Assembly (NCBI GenBank): GCA_964595645.1
Contig: CAZQQT010000001.1
Span: forward strand, 32,001-96,000
DNA length: 64,000 nucleotides
DNA from: an uncultured Thermococci archaeon
Lineage (GTDB): Archaea > Methanobacteriota_B > Thermococci > Methanofastidiosales > B48-G16
Direction of reading: 5' to 3'
Positions 6,465 to 16,227 of this stretch are shown piece by piece. The position numbers and the translations under genes are program-made. Every line of letters begins with the position of its first letter. Position 1 is the stretch's first letter. The notes below the pieces were generated by a model that saw only the letters and a list, made by a program, of their open reading frames with translations, was not told the DNA's origin and made no database searches.

Positions 6465-7160
6465 TTATTGAAGTAGTTTCGTTAGTTGGTAGAGTGATTG
6501 GATCTCAAAATCCGGCTCTATGTCTCCTTTTTTCGGTGCGTTGCGTGCGTTGAACCAACATGCCCTCATTCCTGCTTTTTTTGCACCGTACACATCGGCA
6601 TGATACGAATCACCAATGTACAGTGATTCTTCAGATCCCGCATCGAAGGATTCCAGCGCCTTCCAGAAAATGTGCGGATCCGGCTTTCTGATACCGAGTT
6701 CCTCTGAAAGTACAATCCTCTGAAAGGTCTTCGTGAGTCCCAAAGCGTTCAATTTCCGATACTGTACTTCCTTGGAACCGTTGGAGATAACTCCCATAGA
6801 GTATCGTGGACGAAGGGACGTCACTACCGAGGTGGCATGTTCGATAGGCGTATTCAACGTGGGATACACTCGATAAAACATCTCAGTCATCTCTTCGGCA
6901 AACGCATCATCGAGCTCAAGAGCTCGAAGAATTCTCCGCTGTCTCTCAAGGCGGATGACATCCAGAGGTTTCCCTTCGTGGAACTCTTTCAGTGCTATCT
7001 TATCAGCCTCAAGAAACGCACTAATAAGCCCTTCTTCACTGATATCGCAAAAAATATTTGTATATCTCTTTGCAATTTGTTTGAGCGCCTCTTTGTGAGC
7101 TCTATCCATATCGAAAAGAGTGTTATCGATATCAAAGAATACAACTTTTATTGATGACAT
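6465..7160 (-). CDS. HAD-superfamily hydrolase (YjjG-like nucleotidase)
   Basis: FFDIDNTL, ISNG, KPDP, IGDSYHADV. Confidence 0.92.
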   Translation of the reverse strand: MSSIKVVFFDIDNTLFDMDRAHKEALKQIAKRYTNIFCDISEEGLISAFLEADKIALKEFHEGKPLDVIRLERQRRILRALELDDAFAEEMTEMFYRVYPTLNTPIEHATSVVTSLRPRYSMGVISNGSKEVQYRKLNALGLTKTFQRIVLSEELGIRKPDPHIFWKALESFDAGSEESLYIGDSYHADVYGAKKAGMRACWFNARNAPKKGDIEPDFEIQSLYQLTKLLQ

Positions 7161-7294: not shown

Positions 7295-8110
7295 TTACTC
7301 TCCATTCAGAATGGCAATCGCTGCACCGATAGCAGTAGCATACTCACCTTTCTCGGGAATGATAAACTTTCTGCCGAAAAGAGGTTCGATGGATTTTAAT
7401 GATTCCTGCACTTCCTTCAACGCCATGACCTTTCCGGTGAGAATGATATTATCCAGTTCACATGCTCGCGCAGCGAATATTGCAAGTACACCGAGACTCT
7501 GGGACACCATGTTAATGAGCCCCTTGGCGATATCCTCTTTTTCCACGGTATCATCGATCTTTCCAAAGTTCGAGGCAGTTGCCTCGCTCGGTATTACTCC
7601 AACGTCTCCTCCTGCGATATCACCCACAGTGAGATCCACCTTTCCCAGATTCCCCTTCTTCGCGAGGGCGTTCAGCGTGGAGATATCGTTGATGTTGAGG
7701 AGCATTCGAGCGAGACCTTGGAGAGTGCCACCCCCAATACCACTCCCACCGAAATGTTTGATCTCATCTTTGACACAGACGACGGCTGTCCCTGTGCCCA
7801 TACTCACCACTACACCCTGTCGCTTATTGGCGAGGGTGATTCCGCCCTTTCCAATTGCTGTGATCTCGTCGATCTTTTTTACGGGGATGCCCAGTAGATT
7901 CTCATCGAGAAATCGGGCTCCTCCGCCCGTAGCGGCAAGTATACGTACATCGTTGAGTGTTTTATTGAGAGAAGTAACTACCTTCCCAAGGGCACCCGCT
8001 GCAGCGGCTAGCGGGTCATTGGCAGTCACGCTCACGATCTTCATGAGGGTGCGGTCCTTTATCGCTACCGCGTCCGTTGTTGTACCCCCTATATCGATTC
8101 CTACAATCAT
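7295..8110 (-). CDS. coaW: Type II pantothenate kinase (CoaW/fumble family)
   Basis: GIDIGGT, TGGGA, DEITA, SMGTGT, GGSGIGGGT, VDLTVGDI, ASNFGK. Confidence 0.88.
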   Translation of the reverse strand: MIVGIDIGGTTTDAVAIKDRTLMKIVSVTANDPLAAAAGALGKVVTSLNKTLNDVRILAATGGGARFLDENLLGIPVKKIDEITAIGKGGITLANKRQGVVVSMGTGTAVVCVKDEIKHFGGSGIGGGTLQGLARMLLNINDISTLNALAKKGNLGKVDLTVGDIAGGDVGVIPSEATASNFGKIDDTVEKEDIAKGLINMVSQSLGVLAIFAARACELDNIILTGKVMALKEVQESLKSIEPLFGRKFIIPEKGEYATAIGAAIAILNGE

Positions 8111-8122
8111 TCCTTTCGCCTC

Positions 8123-9754
8123 CTATAACATCAGTGGGATCATTTTTATTATTGCCAAGAGTGCACCCACGACTCCTTCCCCTCCGATCAGCCCTGCGGC
8201 TACAAGTCTTTCCGTTTCATCTTCTTCTTTCTTTCTATTGAGGTAGTGGATTACACCACCGATAAAGAATGCAATAGAGAGATATAGAGGAATGAATATT
8301 CCGACGCCGAAAACCATACCTGGACGTCCTAGGAGGGTAATGCTTGTCCCAAGGGCTACACCTATAAGAAAGATTTTCAGATCGATTATACCGAGCATAT
8401 ACGAGACGCTTCGGGCTTGAAGTGCGTACAACTCCTGACTTCCAAGTTCAAAGGCATTGAGAACAGCGAGCAGACTGAACCCAACCACCGCGGATCCGAT
8501 GACAACTCCAAGCAACTGTGCCTTTGCCTGCTCTTTTGGGGATGTACCTAGTATATGTCCCGCCTTCAGATCGAAAAGCAGATCACCTGCTACACCGACG
8601 GAAACAGCGGCGATAGCAGCGATAAATACACTCTCGAGCGTACCCAGAGACACAGCGATTTTCACGAAAAGAACGATGAGTACAGCAAAGACCTCCATGG
8701 GGTCGATACTCACCTCACCAGTCATCCTCCCTGCAAGGGCGGTCATCACCCATATACCAAGAATTGCAAGTACAGATGCACCAACACCCAGATCTAAAAT
8801 CACACTCATAACAAACACGGAGACCACAGCAAACACAGGTATCCACCGTGGCGTTACCTCCTCTTTCGACACACGAGTGGAGACCATTGCCTTAAAGGTC
8901 TGTATACTCGAGGGGATGACTTTCAAGAGGAATATTGTGATACCACCACCAATCACGGCGCCAACACCCAGTGGCAGTATATACTCGGTCATCTGTGCCA
9001 TTGGTACGTTGTAAAGGTAGTGGATGAGAGGCTGGAAGATATAATACGAGAAAAGACATCCCAGAAACCATATGGAGACGATTTTGTATCCTATGAGATA
9101 TCCAGCCCCAATAGCCATGGGCATGAAAGGAACTTGAACTTTAAATGCTCCTGAGCTGAACTCTTTAAATACGGGAATGATTCCTTTAAAGGCGATATCA
9201 AGCCTTCCAAGGGTTAATGATACACCGTCTCGTAAAGTCGTGAATAGGGCAGAGAGCCCGAAAGCACCCAGAAGAATCTGTATTTTTCGTCCCCCTTCTT
9301 TTTCTCCTGCTCTGATCGTATCTGCAGTTGCTTCTCCTATTACGAAGGGAAGTTTCTCTTCGAGTATCATGCTTTTTCGTAGATAGGCAGAAAAAAGAAC
9401 ACCCATGATGCCACCGAGAAGTGCCAACAGGAACACCTCGAAGAGGAACCTCTCAGGACTGGCGGTGAACGTTGCAAAGAGATCTGCATCGAGGAAGTAT
9501 ATGGCAGGAATGGTAAAACATATCCCCGCTGCAAGAATACCACCAGTGGACGCAGCTGTCTGCGCAATATTTATTTCATGCGCATCCACATCCTTTTCCA
9601 ATCGCAGGAGTTTGTAGATCCCTATTGCCATCAGTGCAGTGAGAATTGAGGCCCACATAAATGCGTTCATCCGGAGTGTAATGTACACTCCTGACATCGT
9701 CATTAGTACAGCGAGGATACTACCGAGGATATACGATCGTAATTTTATTGTCAT
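8123..9754 (-). CDS. OPT (oligopeptide transporter)/YSL family transporter
   Basis: EINIAQTAASTG, FTIPA, E.LPF..GEATA, DLKAGHILG.SP..Q, GLIGGEG, many TM segments. Confidence 0.9.
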   Translation of the reverse strand: MTIKLRSYILGSILAVLMTMSGVYITLRMNAFMWASILTALMAIGIYKLLRLEKDVDAHEINIAQTAASTGGILAAGICFTIPAIYFLDADLFATFTASPERFLFEVFLLALLGGIMGVLFSAYLRKSMILEEKLPFVIGEATADTIRAGEKEGGRKIQILLGAFGLSALFTTLRDGVSLTLGRLDIAFKGIIPVFKEFSSGAFKVQVPFMPMAIGAGYLIGYKIVSIWFLGCLFSYYIFQPLIHYLYNVPMAQMTEYILPLGVGAVIGGGITIFLLKVIPSSIQTFKAMVSTRVSKEEVTPRWIPVFAVVSVFVMSVILDLGVGASVLAILGIWVMTALAGRMTGEVSIDPMEVFAVLIVLFVKIAVSLGTLESVFIAAIAAVSVGVAGDLLFDLKAGHILGTSPKEQAKAQLLGVVIGSAVVGFSLLAVLNAFELGSQELYALQARSVSYMLGIIDLKIFLIGVALGTSITLLGRPGMVFGVGIFIPLYLSIAFFIGGVIHYLNRKKEEDETERLVAAGLIGGEGVVGALLAIIKMIPLML

Positions 9755-9836
9755 ACCTGCTCCTTTGAGAAACTGTATATAAAGTTTTTCTATAAAGTAT
9801 ATAGAATAGAGAAAAAAAATATAGTATCTATATAGA

Positions 9837-10256
9837 TCAATCGAAGGTTTTGTTCATTTCTTTCCGTTTGATGTACTTGTCTAGTGTGTCTGCATCCAGT
9901 GTATTGAACGAGAGCTTTTCGAGTACCTTCTCAGTGATCAGCTGTTTTTTGACCTCTTTTTCAACCTTGTTTCCCTCAAGTTTTCTTGGTACCGAGTATT
10001 TTAACTGCTTAAATACCTCCGCAACCTTCTCCCCTGACATTCTTCCTTCGGGGACGATATCTGCAACGATACTGTCTATTTCTTCCATATCGAAATCTTT
10101 TTCAAAGTACTCAAACAGTTTCCTATCAACTGTATCTCGAACAGAAAGTAAAAGCCTCGCGATGTCAACATCGTTCGTCTTTTCCGTGATCTCCATCTTT
10201 TTTGCCACAATCCATTTCTCATGTTTCCCAACAAAATTTATTTTATCGTCCATCAT
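9837..10256 (-). CDS. DUF2666-like archaeal protein
   Basis: INFVGKHEKWIVAKKM..DVDIARLL. Start set at Met after a GGTGA RBS. Confidence 0.7.
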   Translation of the reverse strand: MMDDKINFVGKHEKWIVAKKMEITEKTNDVDIARLLLSVRDTVDRKLFEYFEKDFDMEEIDSIVADIVPEGRMSGEKVAEVFKQLKYSVPRKLEGNKVEKEVKKQLITEKVLEKLSFNTLDADTLDKYIKRKEMNKTFD

Positions 10257-10491
10257 ATCACCTGAGATCGATAACCGTATATTTTCTTTCCAGTTGTTCC
10301 TTCCAATGTGGTAATAGTATAAAAAATTCACTGTTCTTTCTCTTCACTATTCGTTCTTTCCAACATCAAGATCTGTTACAATTGATTACGTGTATGTATA
10401 GCAAAATGTACTTCGTTACTAGGAGGTCTTTTCCTATAAAATAGGAATGGTTTTTTAAATTATTTATGCAATGCACAATACCTACTTTTAT

Positions 10492-13133: not shown

Positions 13134-13910
13134 TTATTCTTCTTTTTCAGTCGATCCGCCCTTTGTAAGCCAGTTGAGGAATTCCATCGGGAACGGCAGT
13201 ATTACAGTCGATGCATTCTCAGCAGATACCTCTGATATCGTCTGCAACAGTCGCAGCTGTAGTGTCATTGGTTCTGTAGCCATTTTTCTCGCTGCCTCTG
13301 TAAGTTTCTCTGCAGCCTGAAGTTCTCCTTGAGCGTTGATCACTTTTGCCCGTCGCTCTCGTTCTGCCTCAGCCTGGGCAGCCATGGATCGTTTCATTGC
13401 AGACGGCAACTCCACGTCCTTTATCTCCACAGCGGAGACCTTGATCCCCCATGGATCGGTGGCGTCGTCTATCACCGTCTGGAGTTTCTTGTTCAGTTTA
13501 TCCCGTTCACTTAACAGCTCATCGAGATGTGCTTCTCCTATGGTACTTCTCAGCGTGGTCTGGGAGATTTGTGAGGTTGCAGACACGTAGTTTTCTACCT
13601 GCACGATTGCATTTGCAGCGTCCATTACCCGCAGATACACCACAGCATTCACTCGCACGGGGACGTTGTCCTTGGTCATTACCTCTTGAGCGGGGACATC
13701 GAGGACCTTGGTTCGTAGACTTACCTTGTACATTCGATCGATGATCGGAATGATGAAGAATATTCCAGGTCCCTTTGCGCCCTTCAATCGTCCAAGCCTG
13801 AGAATGACACCTCTCTCAAACTCCTTGACAATTTTTATCGCAGAGCTTAGTATCATCAAAATAATGACAACGATAAGTATTCCTGCCAGCTGTACGAAAT
13901 TTAACTCCAC
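13134..13910 (-). CDS. Slipin/stomatin (SPFH domain) protein
   Basis: ERGVILRLG, GPGIFFIIP, TKDNV, QTTLR, WGIKV, QAEAERERRA. Confidence 0.96.
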   Translation of the reverse strand: MELNFVQLAGILIVVIILMILSSAIKIVKEFERGVILRLGRLKGAKGPGIFFIIPIIDRMYKVSLRTKVLDVPAQEVMTKDNVPVRVNAVVYLRVMDAANAIVQVENYVSATSQISQTTLRSTIGEAHLDELLSERDKLNKKLQTVIDDATDPWGIKVSAVEIKDVELPSAMKRSMAAQAEAERERRAKVINAQGELQAAEKLTEAARKMATEPMTLQLRLLQTISEVSAENASTVILPFPMEFLNWLTKGGSTEKEE

Positions 13911-13984
13911 GTTTTCTCACCTCCTTCCATATTTATTTTTTTCATACTCATACTATCTTTTCTTCTATCTTATTAAAACTTTCC

Positions 13985-14926
13985 TTATTCATTCAATGAG
14001 TACAACGGGATTTCTTCTCTTTTTAAAAATGCCGTCATGCAGTGAATGCTCCCATACCCTTTCATGATTTCACTTACGTCGACAGGGATTGTCTCAACGC
14101 CTCTTTCTTCCAGAAGCTTTTTTGTTTGAGGATTTCCAGTGGGCATCACAATCTTCCCGGGCTCAAGTGCTACAACATTCAGTGCAAACGTATAAAACTC
14201 TTCTAAGGGGACATCAATTATATGAAAATCTCTTTTTAGAAGCTCTTCATATACAATATTGGGCGTGAGAAGTCTGACAGCAAGTGCAGTGTGTAGATCG
14301 ACAAAAGAAAGAAAACCATCCAAATGAGCTTGTGCACGGGGAATATTCACTTTGATAATATTGTTCACCCCCATGGCTCTCAGTTCCCTCTCTACCTGCG
14401 CTGCACCGGCTGAGTTACACCGGTATCCTTCCCCGAGGATTACTGTCTCTTTATCAAGCCAGAGCCCGCATGCTCCCTCAAATATTCCCTCTCCACTGAT
14501 GGTCTTGAGTATTGGTACTCCCAGTTGCAGTAACTGGAGTGCGGCATACCGTTCCTCTCCAGCCCTACAGGAAAGGGCCGGCCTGGCAACAATTGCTCCT
14601 TCAGGGGTCATAAACACGAGATCCCTGACATATATACCGTTCGGTCTATTCTTCGGCATTTCTTCAATATAGTGTACCTTTACTCCGTGCCCCTTGTATA
14701 TTGTGGTGAGCGTGTCATGTTGTTCTCTGACCGTCGCAGGATCCCATAGTTCCTTCATTCTCCATTTTTGAGGGTCACCGAGATTCTCTATCTCCTCCCC
14801 CGGTCTTCTCATGAGTACCGCTTTTAATGTACCTATCTCTGAAGATACTCCCCAATCGCCCCATATTTTGGGTATTTCTTCTTTAAAATTAGCTTTTCTA
14901 AGCTTTATATTTATATCTTCCTTCAT
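13985..14926 (-). CDS. Amidinotransferase/dimethylargininase (pentein) family enzyme
   Basis: SEIGTLKAVLMRRP, YVRD, RAGEE, FEG, HLD, GSIHCMT catalytic Cys. Confidence 0.9.
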   Translation of the reverse strand: MKEDINIKLRKANFKEEIPKIWGDWGVSSEIGTLKAVLMRRPGEEIENLGDPQKWRMKELWDPATVREQHDTLTTIYKGHGVKVHYIEEMPKNRPNGIYVRDLVFMTPEGAIVARPALSCRAGEERYAALQLLQLGVPILKTISGEGIFEGACGLWLDKETVILGEGYRCNSAGAAQVERELRAMGVNNIIKVNIPRAQAHLDGFLSFVDLHTALAVRLLTPNIVYEELLKRDFHIIDVPLEEFYTFALNVVALEPGKIVMPTGNPQTKKLLEERGVETIPVDVSEIMKGYGSIHCMTAFLKREEIPLYSLNE

Positions 14927-16227
14927 ATTTTTCTTACCTTCAGTTTAAGTCCGTGCATTTCTATTACTTCGACTTTCTCACCTTTCTTTATCTTCTCGTC
15001 ACTGTAAACATTCCATATTTCACCGCGACCACGTATCTGACCCTCAGGGTCAATGTCAGTTAGAGCGGTGCCTTTCACTCCTAGCATTTGTTCTTCCCCC
15101 GTGGTAGGTTTTGTTCTTCTGAGTTGTAGTGCCTTTGAAATTCCAAAAATAAAGAAGAGCGCCACTGAGACTGTCACAATGATAACGAGATATCTGAATT
15201 CGGTAAAAAACTCTCTTCTAATCACCCATTCCGTCTCCTGTGAAGCAGAAAATAAGAGCATCGAACCGAAAAAGAAGGACACAACACCGGCGGTAGTGAA
15301 TAATCCAAAGGTGGGCGTGAGAAGTTCTACCACGAAGAAGAGTATTCCCAGTCCGATTAGAAGAAATCCTCCGAGATTAAATCCTACATAGCCCTGCGCA
15401 ATGATGCCAAGACCGAGACAGATGGCGCCGACCGTTTCCGGCACATGCCATCCAGGTGTAGTAAATCCAAAGAACAATCCTAAAATTCCTATGGTAACCA
15501 AAAAATATGCGAGGTTAGGGTTGGTGATCGTGATGATAAATTTATCCTTAAATGATTTTTCAATGATCTCTACTTCCGCACCATCAACATCGAGTCTATC
15601 CTCTCTCCCTTTCAACTTCATTCCGTCGGCCTTTTCCAGGAGCTCGTATTTGTCGTCAGCTTGGAGTTCTATTAATTCTTTTTCAAGTGCTTCTTGAGGA
15701 GTGAGGCTCAGATTCTCTGTGACGAACTTCTCTGCTTCATCTGGATTTCTCCCGTGTCCTTCTGCGAGTGACCGCATATAGCTCGTATAGAAGTTCACCG
15801 TTTTTTCAGGAGCTTCGAGAATCTTCCCTGTCTGCGGATCGTATCCGAGAATAGGTTCACATGCACCTATAGATGTGCTTGGAGCCATTGCTATGAGATT
15901 AGAGGCCATTGCAATGTATGTGCCTGCAGAGGCGGCAATTGCTCCCTTTGGACTTACAAAAACAATTATTGGTACATCAGAAGAGTCTATTTTCTTTATT
16001 ATATTCATCATCGCGTCCCCTCTTCCTCCGGGAGTATCTATCTCTATAATCAGTGCTGTTCCATCGGTATTAGCCTTATCTACAGCTTTTCTCACAACTT
16101 CTTCTGTTGCTGGACCTATTTCTCCTTCTACTTCTACCACGTAGACTTTCTTCGCCGAGGAGAGCGTCGGCATTAGAATTGCCGGCAAAAGAAGCCCGAG
16201 GAGCAGGATCAATACAATTTTTCTCAT
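14923..16227 (-). CDS. nfeD: NfeD long-form membrane-bound serine protease (stomatin operon partner)
   Basis: IDTPGG, AASAGTYI, GACEP ClpP-like domain, TM region, C-terminal OB fold (GEIW). Confidence 0.94.
   Translation of the reverse strand: MRKIVLILLLGLLLPAILMPTLSSAKKVYVVEVEGEIGPATEEVVRKAVDKANTDGTALIIEIDTPGGRGDAMMNIIKKIDSSDVPIIVFVSPKGAIAASAGTYIAMASNLIAMAPSTSIGACEPILGYDPQTGKILEAPEKTVNFYTSYMRSLAEGHGRNPDEAEKFVTENLSLTPQEALEKELIELQADDKYELLEKADGMKLKGREDRLDVDGAEVEIIEKSFKDKFIITITNPNLAYFLVTIGILGLFFGFTTPGWHVPETVGAICLGLGIIAQGYVGFNLGGFLLIGLGILFFVVELLTPTFGLFTTAGVVSFFFGSMLLFSASQETEWVIRREFFTEFRYLVIIVTVSVALFFIFGISKALQLRRTKPTTGEEQMLGVKGTALTDIDPEGQIRGRGEIWNVYSDEKIKKGEKVEVIEMHGLKLKVRKI

Follow-up and report, generated by a model that had tools for sequence, protein, structure and literature searches.

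The locus described here raises the question of what an archaeon does with a type II pantothenate kinase (PanK)-like gene placed directly behind a gene for an OPT-family transporter, and of what that transporter carries. Both genes lie in a window of 64,000 nucleotides, the whole stretch of DNA that was analysed, from a Methanofastidiosales genome. The features of interest are all on the minus strand.

7295..8110, minus strand: type II pantothenate-kinase-like ASKHA kinase gene, 271 aa (ORF and Fumble profile)
8111..8123, minus strand: OPT-kinase spacer, 12 nt (8111-8122), with a Shine-Dalgarno-like GGAGG (read from the sequence)
8123..9754, minus strand: OPT/YSL-family secondary transporter gene, 543 aa (ORF and PF03169)
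9776..9791, minus strand: BRE/TATA-like element, a purine run and then TTTATATA, 21 nt before the OPT ATG (by eye)
9837..10331, minus strand: DUF2666 gene, the neighbour upstream of OPT (PF10869, E 1e-24)

We propose that the pair is likely to be a two-gene CoA salvage module which imports pantetheine and phosphorylates it, a reading for which there are no biochemical or expression data. The original prediction, made from sequence alone, was that the OPT gene ends 12 nt before a same-strand kinase, and this held: by the ORF coordinates, the stop codon of OPT and the start codon (ATG) of the kinase are separated by exactly 12 nt (8111-8122). The GGAGG in this spacer overlaps the OPT stop codon and ends 8 nt before the kinase ATG, suggesting that the two genes may share one transcript, a function that is inferred. 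Upstream, a T8 run at 9812-9819 comes after the DUF2666 gene and precedes the BRE/TATA-like element at 9776..9791, which was seen by eye only and is a possible promoter of the pair. A scan for sigma-70 promoters and terminators gave signals at chance level, such a scan being unsuited to archaea. DUF2666 is found upstream of OPT in most loci of families f1 and f3 of the order and was not seen beside the pair in the inspected loci outside it; its placement is likely to be synteny within the order rather than membership of the module. The HAD gene downstream (6465-7160) was considered as a ThnH-like phosphopantetheine phosphatase belonging to the module and was rejected, as it is YjjG-like instead, and it directly follows the kinase only in the same genus. 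The OPT and kinase genes are each single-copy in the genome, and this OPT is its sole OPT.

The host genome is 99.96% complete in 14 contigs, and PanB, PanC, PanD, PoK, PPS, CoaB, CoaC, type III PanK and PanT are all absent from it in silico. PPS, PanB and DFP/CoaB gave no match; unfiltered six-frame profile searches of the genome with the CoaBC, CoaB, PoK and PPS of relatives recovered known paralogues only, and single-protein queries (monofunctional CoaB, CoaX, PanT, PanB/C/D) matched nothing. The sole flavoprotein is UbiX, and the two GHMP kinases are a mevalonate kinase and an aspartate/homoserine kinase fusion. A PPAT gene above the profile cut-off (contig C13) and a GTP-dependent dephospho-CoA kinase (DPCK) gene (contig C1) are present. 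Since the genome also contains five CoA-binding-domain genes, CoA is used by the host, and without CoaB and CoaC established pathway logic requires that the cell obtain 4'-phosphopantetheine by some other means. Type I and type II PanKs convert pantetheine to 4'-phosphopantetheine and type III enzymes cannot (PMC12406275, PMC8721197). Judged by gene content, pantothenate is likely a dead end in this genome and pantetheine the entry point that fits. The presence of kinase, PPAT and DPCK in the absence of CoaB and CoaC is the gene set of a CoaBC-bypass pantetheine salvage, and the gene set of the archaeal PoK/PPS pathway (PoK, PPS, CoaBC) is not met.

Several claims of the original prediction can be judged at this point. 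CoA-precursor salvage is supported by the pathway gaps and by the gene neighbourhoods described below, with transport and kinase activity remaining inferred. Auxotrophy or scavenging is likewise supported, as an inference from gene content, in a host without PoK, PPS, CoaB, CoaC and PanB/C/D. A genome search for PoK/PPS/panB/panE/coaBC had been named as a check, and in it PoK, PPS, PanB, CoaB and CoaC were not found. The suggested cargo, which was pantothenate, pantetheine or a disulfide form, is narrowed, pantothenate being ruled out for this genome by gene content.

The family of the kinase is shown. It matches the Fumble Pfam profile at 90 bits against a cut-off of 28.5 (E 2e-25) and scores 216.7 bits with the PRK13317 type II PanK profile, just below the cut-off of 234, which a Bacillota partner kinase passes at 253.5 bits. 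All 14 PDB sequence matches are type II PanKs, as are all of the top 50 Foldseek fold matches (TM about 0.77). The closest relatives, 79-81% identical, come from MAGs labelled Thermococci/Methanobacteriota, followed by Theionarchaea and Methanofastidiosia. In 148 homologues gathered with a profile built from this kinase clade, the Mg/ATP loop Asp (D6) is kept in 147 and E82, which aligns to S. aureus E70, in 148/148. The E70 residue of the S. aureus type II PanK has a catalytic role. The E138A mutant of PANK3 is inactive (PMC6199309). T178, the counterpart of S. aureus T172, is kept, the DxGGxT loop is present and the positions equivalent to V250/I253/A269 of the PANK3 dimethyl pocket match; PANK3 Y254/Y258 and S. 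aureus Y240 are not conserved.

At the position where the substrate-binding Arg (S. aureus R113, human PANK3 R207) is expected, the kinase has His119, which is invariant (148/148 homologues). In PANK3, R207 hydrogen-bonds pantothenate (PMC6199309). Since an invariant His replaces the pantothenate-binding Arg, the enzyme is a variant rather than a canonical type II PanK, and the claim that it has all the type II motifs held only in part: D6, E82 and T178 are kept, the substrate-binding Arg is not. Loss of a fixed positive charge might suit a neutral amide such as pantetheine, which is no more than an inferred possibility. Kinases of Binatia carry the same His with no OPT nearby, and His119 therefore marks the kinase clade rather than the operon. 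It is likely that the kinase phosphorylates pantetheine; its substrate and activity are inferred, in the absence of enzyme data.

The transporter matches PF03169 over residues 5-536 at 175.8 bits against a cut-off of 25.8 (E 2e-51) and falls below the TIGR00728/TIGR00733 cut-offs. The only significant PDB fold match of its AlphaFold model (pLDDT 82) is barley YS1 (E 4e-14, TM 0.74). The tree contains 162 rows of its clade, which is separated from the outgroup with an SH-aLRT of 100 and lies well apart from other prokaryotic OPTs. A Collinsella aerofaciens OPT nests inside the clade, and it is very likely that the archaeal protein belongs to subcluster 4E, apart from the prokaryotic OPTs of 620-690 aa. 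This placement rests on a C. aerofaciens OPT from a strain other than that of Cae1, and the Cce1 sequence is not in the tree. The C. aerofaciens OPT gene stands divergent from a type III PanK gene. Membership of the eukaryotic peptide-transporter clusters 1-3 is unlikely, since 4E was placed in the all-prokaryote cluster 4 (PMC3061005). Relatives of the clade number at least 580. At the time of the 2011 survey of the family no prokaryotic OPT had been characterised (PMC3061005), and no later substrate was found in the literature searched, from which subscription journals were largely excluded. We consider pantetheine or a pantetheine disulfide the likely cargo; transport is inferred without uptake data, and thiol and disulfide cannot be told apart from the sequence.

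In a survey of 34 genomes of the order, the kinase was found in 14, the OPT in 14 and both in 13, and the two genes were adjacent in 12 (12/14 kinase-bearing genomes). CoaB and PPS occur in 0/6 genomes of the host's family and 0/3 of genus g8 (Theionarchaea). The Methanofastidiosum-type family f2 shows OPT and kinase in 0/17, with CoaB and PPS in 16/17. Six genomes of family f3 have the pair and retain PPS and CoaB, and one further genome (G030) has the pair and CoaBC without PPS; in these a pantothenate kinase would possibly also make sense. In g8 the kinase follows PPAT, the order being PPAT-OPT-PanK in G033 and PPAT-PanK in G031 and G032. In one member of the host's own family (L003), the position between DUF2666 and a kinase of 81% identity is filled by an OPT that is only 32-35% identical to that of the host. 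A tree test rejected monophyly for the OPTs of this family (p-AU 2e-8), with the reservation that this was a quick tree and the group was chosen after a first tree had been seen. Since monophyly is rejected and the site is unchanged in L003, the OPT was exchanged in place while its linkage to the kinase held.

Outside the order, 48/80 related OPT loci have the kinase downstream, and several of the remainder stop at a contig edge. The pair occurs in Aenigmarchaeota, Hadarchaeota, WOR-3, Clostridium and other Bacillota, so that OPTs of only about 30% identity are still linked to the kinase in two domains of life. Adjacency in 12/14 kinase-bearing genomes of the order and in 48/80 loci from several phyla argues that the pairing is not due to chance. 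The gene-neighbourhood survey of OPT and type II PanK named as a check thus showed a recurrent pairing that is not unique to this genome, and the description of the pair as an archaeal operon was too narrow, the module being common in Bacillota and other bacteria. At one locus (L267), OPT, PanK and a CoaD-CoaE fusion stand in a row, which by gene content would be the whole route from pantetheine to CoA. Calditrichota/KSB1 members of the OPT clade have no CoA-gene neighbour. CoaB was not found in 27/31 outside genomes with an adjacent pair, for which completeness was not given and many of which are reduced DPANN. DPANN genomes are without many pathways anyway, weakening an argument from CoaB absence.

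Among 81 Bacillota relatives the kinase is present in 28, all of which also have this OPT (28/28), adjacent in 26. CoaB is missing from 10/28 genomes with the kinase versus 8/53 (Fisher p 0.049 without correction); the contrast is weak and its genomes are not independent, most of the loss being that of one clade. In one genome (G104) the pair lies about 3 kb from panBCD-coaB-coaC-coaX, and in another (G086) it is accompanied elsewhere by coaB-coaX and by what we take to be a PanT-like gene, named by recognition without an NCBIfam match. Since pantothenate is already handled in these two genomes, the best reading is that the pair supplies a function of which CoaX is incapable. The weak DFP matches in both were considered as decaying CoaB, a reading that was rejected: the CoaB genes are split, and both genomes count as having CoaB.

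Further evidence comes from loci at which this OPT clade has a different partner. A further 80 OPT loci, from a second scan, showed the kinase in 18 and an S58-family gene directly downstream in 30, and never both. The OPT-linked S58 proteins resemble ThnT (E 4e-50 to 5e-53), keep the NTT cleavage motif and are outscored as matches only by nylon hydrolases (the best PDB matches) and one unassigned enzyme. ThnT hydrolyses pantetheine, its reported substrate being the carbapenem-bound form (PMC13725253, PMC6097109). If the OPT imports pantetheine, hosts of the S58 gene would be expected to have CoaX and CoaB, not type II PanK. As tested in the 30 S58-locus genomes, CoaB was present in 29/30, type III PanK (CoaX) in 29/30 and type II PanK in 1/30. 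Six sister genomes with the OPT but without an S58 neighbour all have a type II PanK elsewhere (6/6). On the tree, kinase pairing is spread over deep branches of the OPT clade and S58 pairing is a single nested group, and the latter therefore counts as one event. The host's own S58 gene (contig C2) was not counted as a pantetheinase; a ThnT-like query gave no match, and the gene was read as DmpA-type.

Two arrangements lack the type II kinase altogether. Seven spirochaetes have this OPT, no CoaB and only a type III PanK, and in 6/6 of those read the PAN-motif Arg of CoaX, which four S58 controls retain as GxDR, is replaced by Leu, Ile or Lys. The same substitution has been proposed, untested, to admit pantetheine in mycoplasmas (PMC8721197). 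Five CoaB-less archaea with the OPT and without type II PanK have a PoK homologue, in one case adjoining the OPT, and no PPS. The altered spirochaete CoaX and the orphan PoK are possible pantetheine kinases, for which there are no activity data. As inferred from gene content, each partner arrangement fits a pantetheine cargo.

In the mechanism that we propose, the OPT, an ion-coupled symporter by family precedent, would import pantetheine either as the thiol or as a disulfide that is reduced inside. The type II PanK-like enzyme would then use ATP to convert pantetheine to 4'-phosphopantetheine, its family being shown and its substrate inferred. The archaeal PPAT and GTP-dependent DPCK, whose genes are shown, would complete CoA. 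Such a module would bypass PoK, PPS, CoaB and CoaC, none of which was found in silico, and since all are missing, the host should be an obligate pantetheine auxotroph. For relatives that keep de novo synthesis the pair would be an optional salvage route, and in other lineages the OPT clade would feed other pantetheine-using enzymes.

The rival that survives best accepts that the kinase salvages pantetheine and takes the OPT for a general importer of peptides or thiol disulfides, with pantetheine one cargo among several or none. In its favour, other prokaryotic OPT subclusters adjoin peptidases (PMC3061005), the S58 family is by name one of peptidases, pantetheine enters through yeast Opt1 and through B. 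subtilis TcyJKLMN only via a glutathione or cysteine moiety (PMC12406275, PMC11487621), and the host has a single OPT. We nevertheless consider it unlikely, since the kinase linkage extends across two domains at about 30% OPT identity and survived the in-place exchange of the OPT, and since the switch of partner tracks the PanK type of the host.

A second rival holds that the OPT imports pantothenate and that the kinase is an ordinary PanK replacing PoK/PPS, with CoaB and CoaC either unassembled or replaced by unrecognised proteins. Type II PanKs are established to accept pantothenate, G030 has the pair with CoaBC and no PPS, and the assembly is in 14 contigs. Against this, CoaB is absent from 6/6 genomes of the family, from 3/3 of genus g8 and from the unfiltered profile searches; pantothenate is served by CoaX and a PanT-like gene in bacteria that have the pair; an amidohydrolase partner would be senseless for a pantothenate cargo; and the pantothenate-binding Arg is replaced. 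This rival is very unlikely. Even less probable is a third rival, in which the OPT carries an intermediate from further along the pathway (4'-phosphopantetheine, dephospho-CoA or CoA) or the substrate of the His-type kinase is an unrelated one. In its favour, phosphopantetheine disulfides are also imported by Opt1 (PMC12406275), the OPT occurs in the absence of type II PanK in the spirochaetes and in five CoaB-less archaea, and Arg-to-His could signal another substrate. Against it, a phosphorylated cargo would make a tightly linked kinase needless, those archaea and spirochaetes keep a PoK homologue and an altered CoaX, respectively, as candidate pantetheine kinases, and the kinase adjoins PPAT or CoaD-CoaE.

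Pantetheine salvage by the OPT-kinase pair therefore remains the preferred reading, and it can be extended. In a bolder form, which could as easily prove wrong as right, subcluster 4E would serve anaerobic bacteria and archaea as a dedicated importer of pantetheine/pantethine, with at least three downstream solutions. With the same balance of doubt, these would be a type II kinase of the His type that prefers pantetheine, a ThnT-like pantetheinase that supplies CoaX/CoaBC, and kinases of altered specificity. The last, on which the evidence is just as finely poised, would be the Arg-less type III PanK of spirochaetes and the orphan PoK of some archaea. If the bolder reading is true, several archaeal lineages would be obligate pantetheine auxotrophs living on the CoA breakdown products of their neighbours.

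Prokaryotic pantetheine uptake is a largely open subject: in the two routes that we found, a transporter for glutathione or for cystine performs it as a side activity (PMC12406275, PMC11487621). The pair offers a specific, probable cargo for a widespread and never-tested OPT clade, and culturable carriers include Clostridium sp. 19966, Clostridium aminobutyricum DSM 2634, Emergencia timonensis and Natronincola peptidivorans. On this reading the archaeal PoK/PPS rule would have an exception, and the predicted medium supplement for this archaeal family is pantetheine or pantethine, not pantothenate. No description of the module or of an archaeal type II PanK was found in a partial search of the literature, in which a prior description cannot be excluded, and searches on the PanP pantetheinase and on R113 of SaPanK gave nothing usable.

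The closest known system is the yeast Opt1 route, in which pantetheine is imported as a glutathione mixed disulfide (Wedman et al. 2025, PMC12406275); the original prediction's statement that Opt1 can import CoA precursors in this form is correct. Both systems combine pantetheine import by an OPT-family protein with a type II PanK (Cab1 in yeast) and bypass PPCS/PPCDC. However, Opt1 is a eukaryotic peptide/glutathione transporter for which the pantetheine disulfide is a side activity, whereas the protein described here is a short prokaryotic OPT of the YS side (PMC3061005). Opt1 belongs to the eukaryotic branch of peptide transporters, which is distant from the clade described here, and so serves as an analogy only. 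Unlike the yeast system, this OPT is gene-linked to the kinase and the host lacks CoaB and CoaC; the main text of PMC12406275 does not mention archaea or OPT homologues. The B. subtilis CoaA/TcyJKLMN route is similar in salvaging at the level of pantetheine through a promiscuous PanK, and differs in that an ABC cystine transporter imports cysteinopantetheine, deregulation is needed, the PanK is of type I and there is no dedicated operon (PMC11487621).

The kinase shares with S. aureus CoaW, human PANK3 and yeast Cab1 the fold, the DxGGxT loop, the catalytic Glu, T178 and the dimethyl-pocket positions; it differs from CoaW and PANK3 in having His for R113/R207 and in its archaeal host without CoaBC. 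The archaeal PoK/PPS route leads to 4'-phosphopantothenate; the two routes have the same end product and share archaeal PPAT and GTP-dependent DPCK, but its PoK, PPS and CoaBC are missing from the host and retained in the sister family f2. Subcluster 4E, comprising Cce1 of Clostridium cellulolyticum and Cae1 of Collinsella aerofaciens (Gomolplitinant and Saier 2011, PMC3061005), shares the short length of ~540-560 aa. That survey had two 4E members, noted a pantothenate kinase in the Cce1 cluster, guessed at a phospholipid substrate while declining a prediction, and drew no link of 4E to CoA salvage, CoaBC loss or archaea. Pantetheine salvage, OPT-mediated uptake in yeast and the PanK neighbour of 4E are already known.

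The OPT-clade gene, a predicted pantetheine importer, is followed immediately 3' by a gene for a ThnT-like S58 amidohydrolase in 30 loci of other genomes, the hosts being Clostridia, Caldisericota and one spirochaete. These comprise the three below and 27 more:

L293:5655-6617, S58 amidohydrolase, directly downstream of OPT
L350:5642-6601, S58 amidohydrolase, directly downstream of OPT
L335:5571-6581, S58 amidohydrolase, directly downstream of OPT

It is possible that this OPT-linked enzyme is a pantetheinase.

At L267:1318-4918 the OPT gene comes first, type II PanK second and a CoaD-CoaE fusion of bacterial type third, and their stop and start codons overlap; the source is a 1.4 Mb MAG labelled Methanosarcinales, a label that is doubtful. 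In one Aenigmarchaeota genome OPT and the kinase flank a 2H-phosphoesterase gene that runs the other way (L153:6787-7317), and in its relatives the pair is split by other genes.

The pantetheine-salvage reading does not explain the pattern in Calditrichota/KSB1, where the genomes carrying OPT-clade members retain CoaB and the OPT loci have no CoA-related neighbour (10 loci: L189, L193, L195, L202, L204, L205, L210, L215, L223 and L224). Two of these OPT carriers encode a type II PanK elsewhere in the genome. In Binatia, no OPT was found near the His-type type II PanK at L008, L009, L010, L054 or L068; a conserved gene of ~400 aa lies upstream of the kinase at these loci.

Upstream of OPT in the window is a gene that is conserved in this position in two Methanofastidiosales families (f1 and f3):

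9837-10331, DUF2666 gene

Its homologues begin ~25 codons downstream of the listed GTG; the true start is likely to be near 10256. Elsewhere in the window (13134-16227), NfeD-like, amidinotransferase-like and SPFH/stomatin genes, named from sequence by eye, occur in that order; the middle gene looks inserted, because the NfeD and SPFH genes adjoin in a relative (L002) with none between. The host genome also encodes fused aspartate and homoserine kinases as a single 649-aa ORF (L082:1018-2967, contig C9 of G000).

Some OPT-bearing archaeal MAGs, labelled Njordarchaeota, Nitrososphaerota or Thermoproteota, have a PoK homologue without PPS, CoaB or type II PanK (L196:6702-7643; L381-L385), and this PoK may be a repurposed pantetheine kinase. 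In CoaB-less spirochaetes, the type III PanKs lack the Arg of the PAN motif (coaX loci L367-L373). We propose these as candidates for the first type III enzymes to accept pantetheine.
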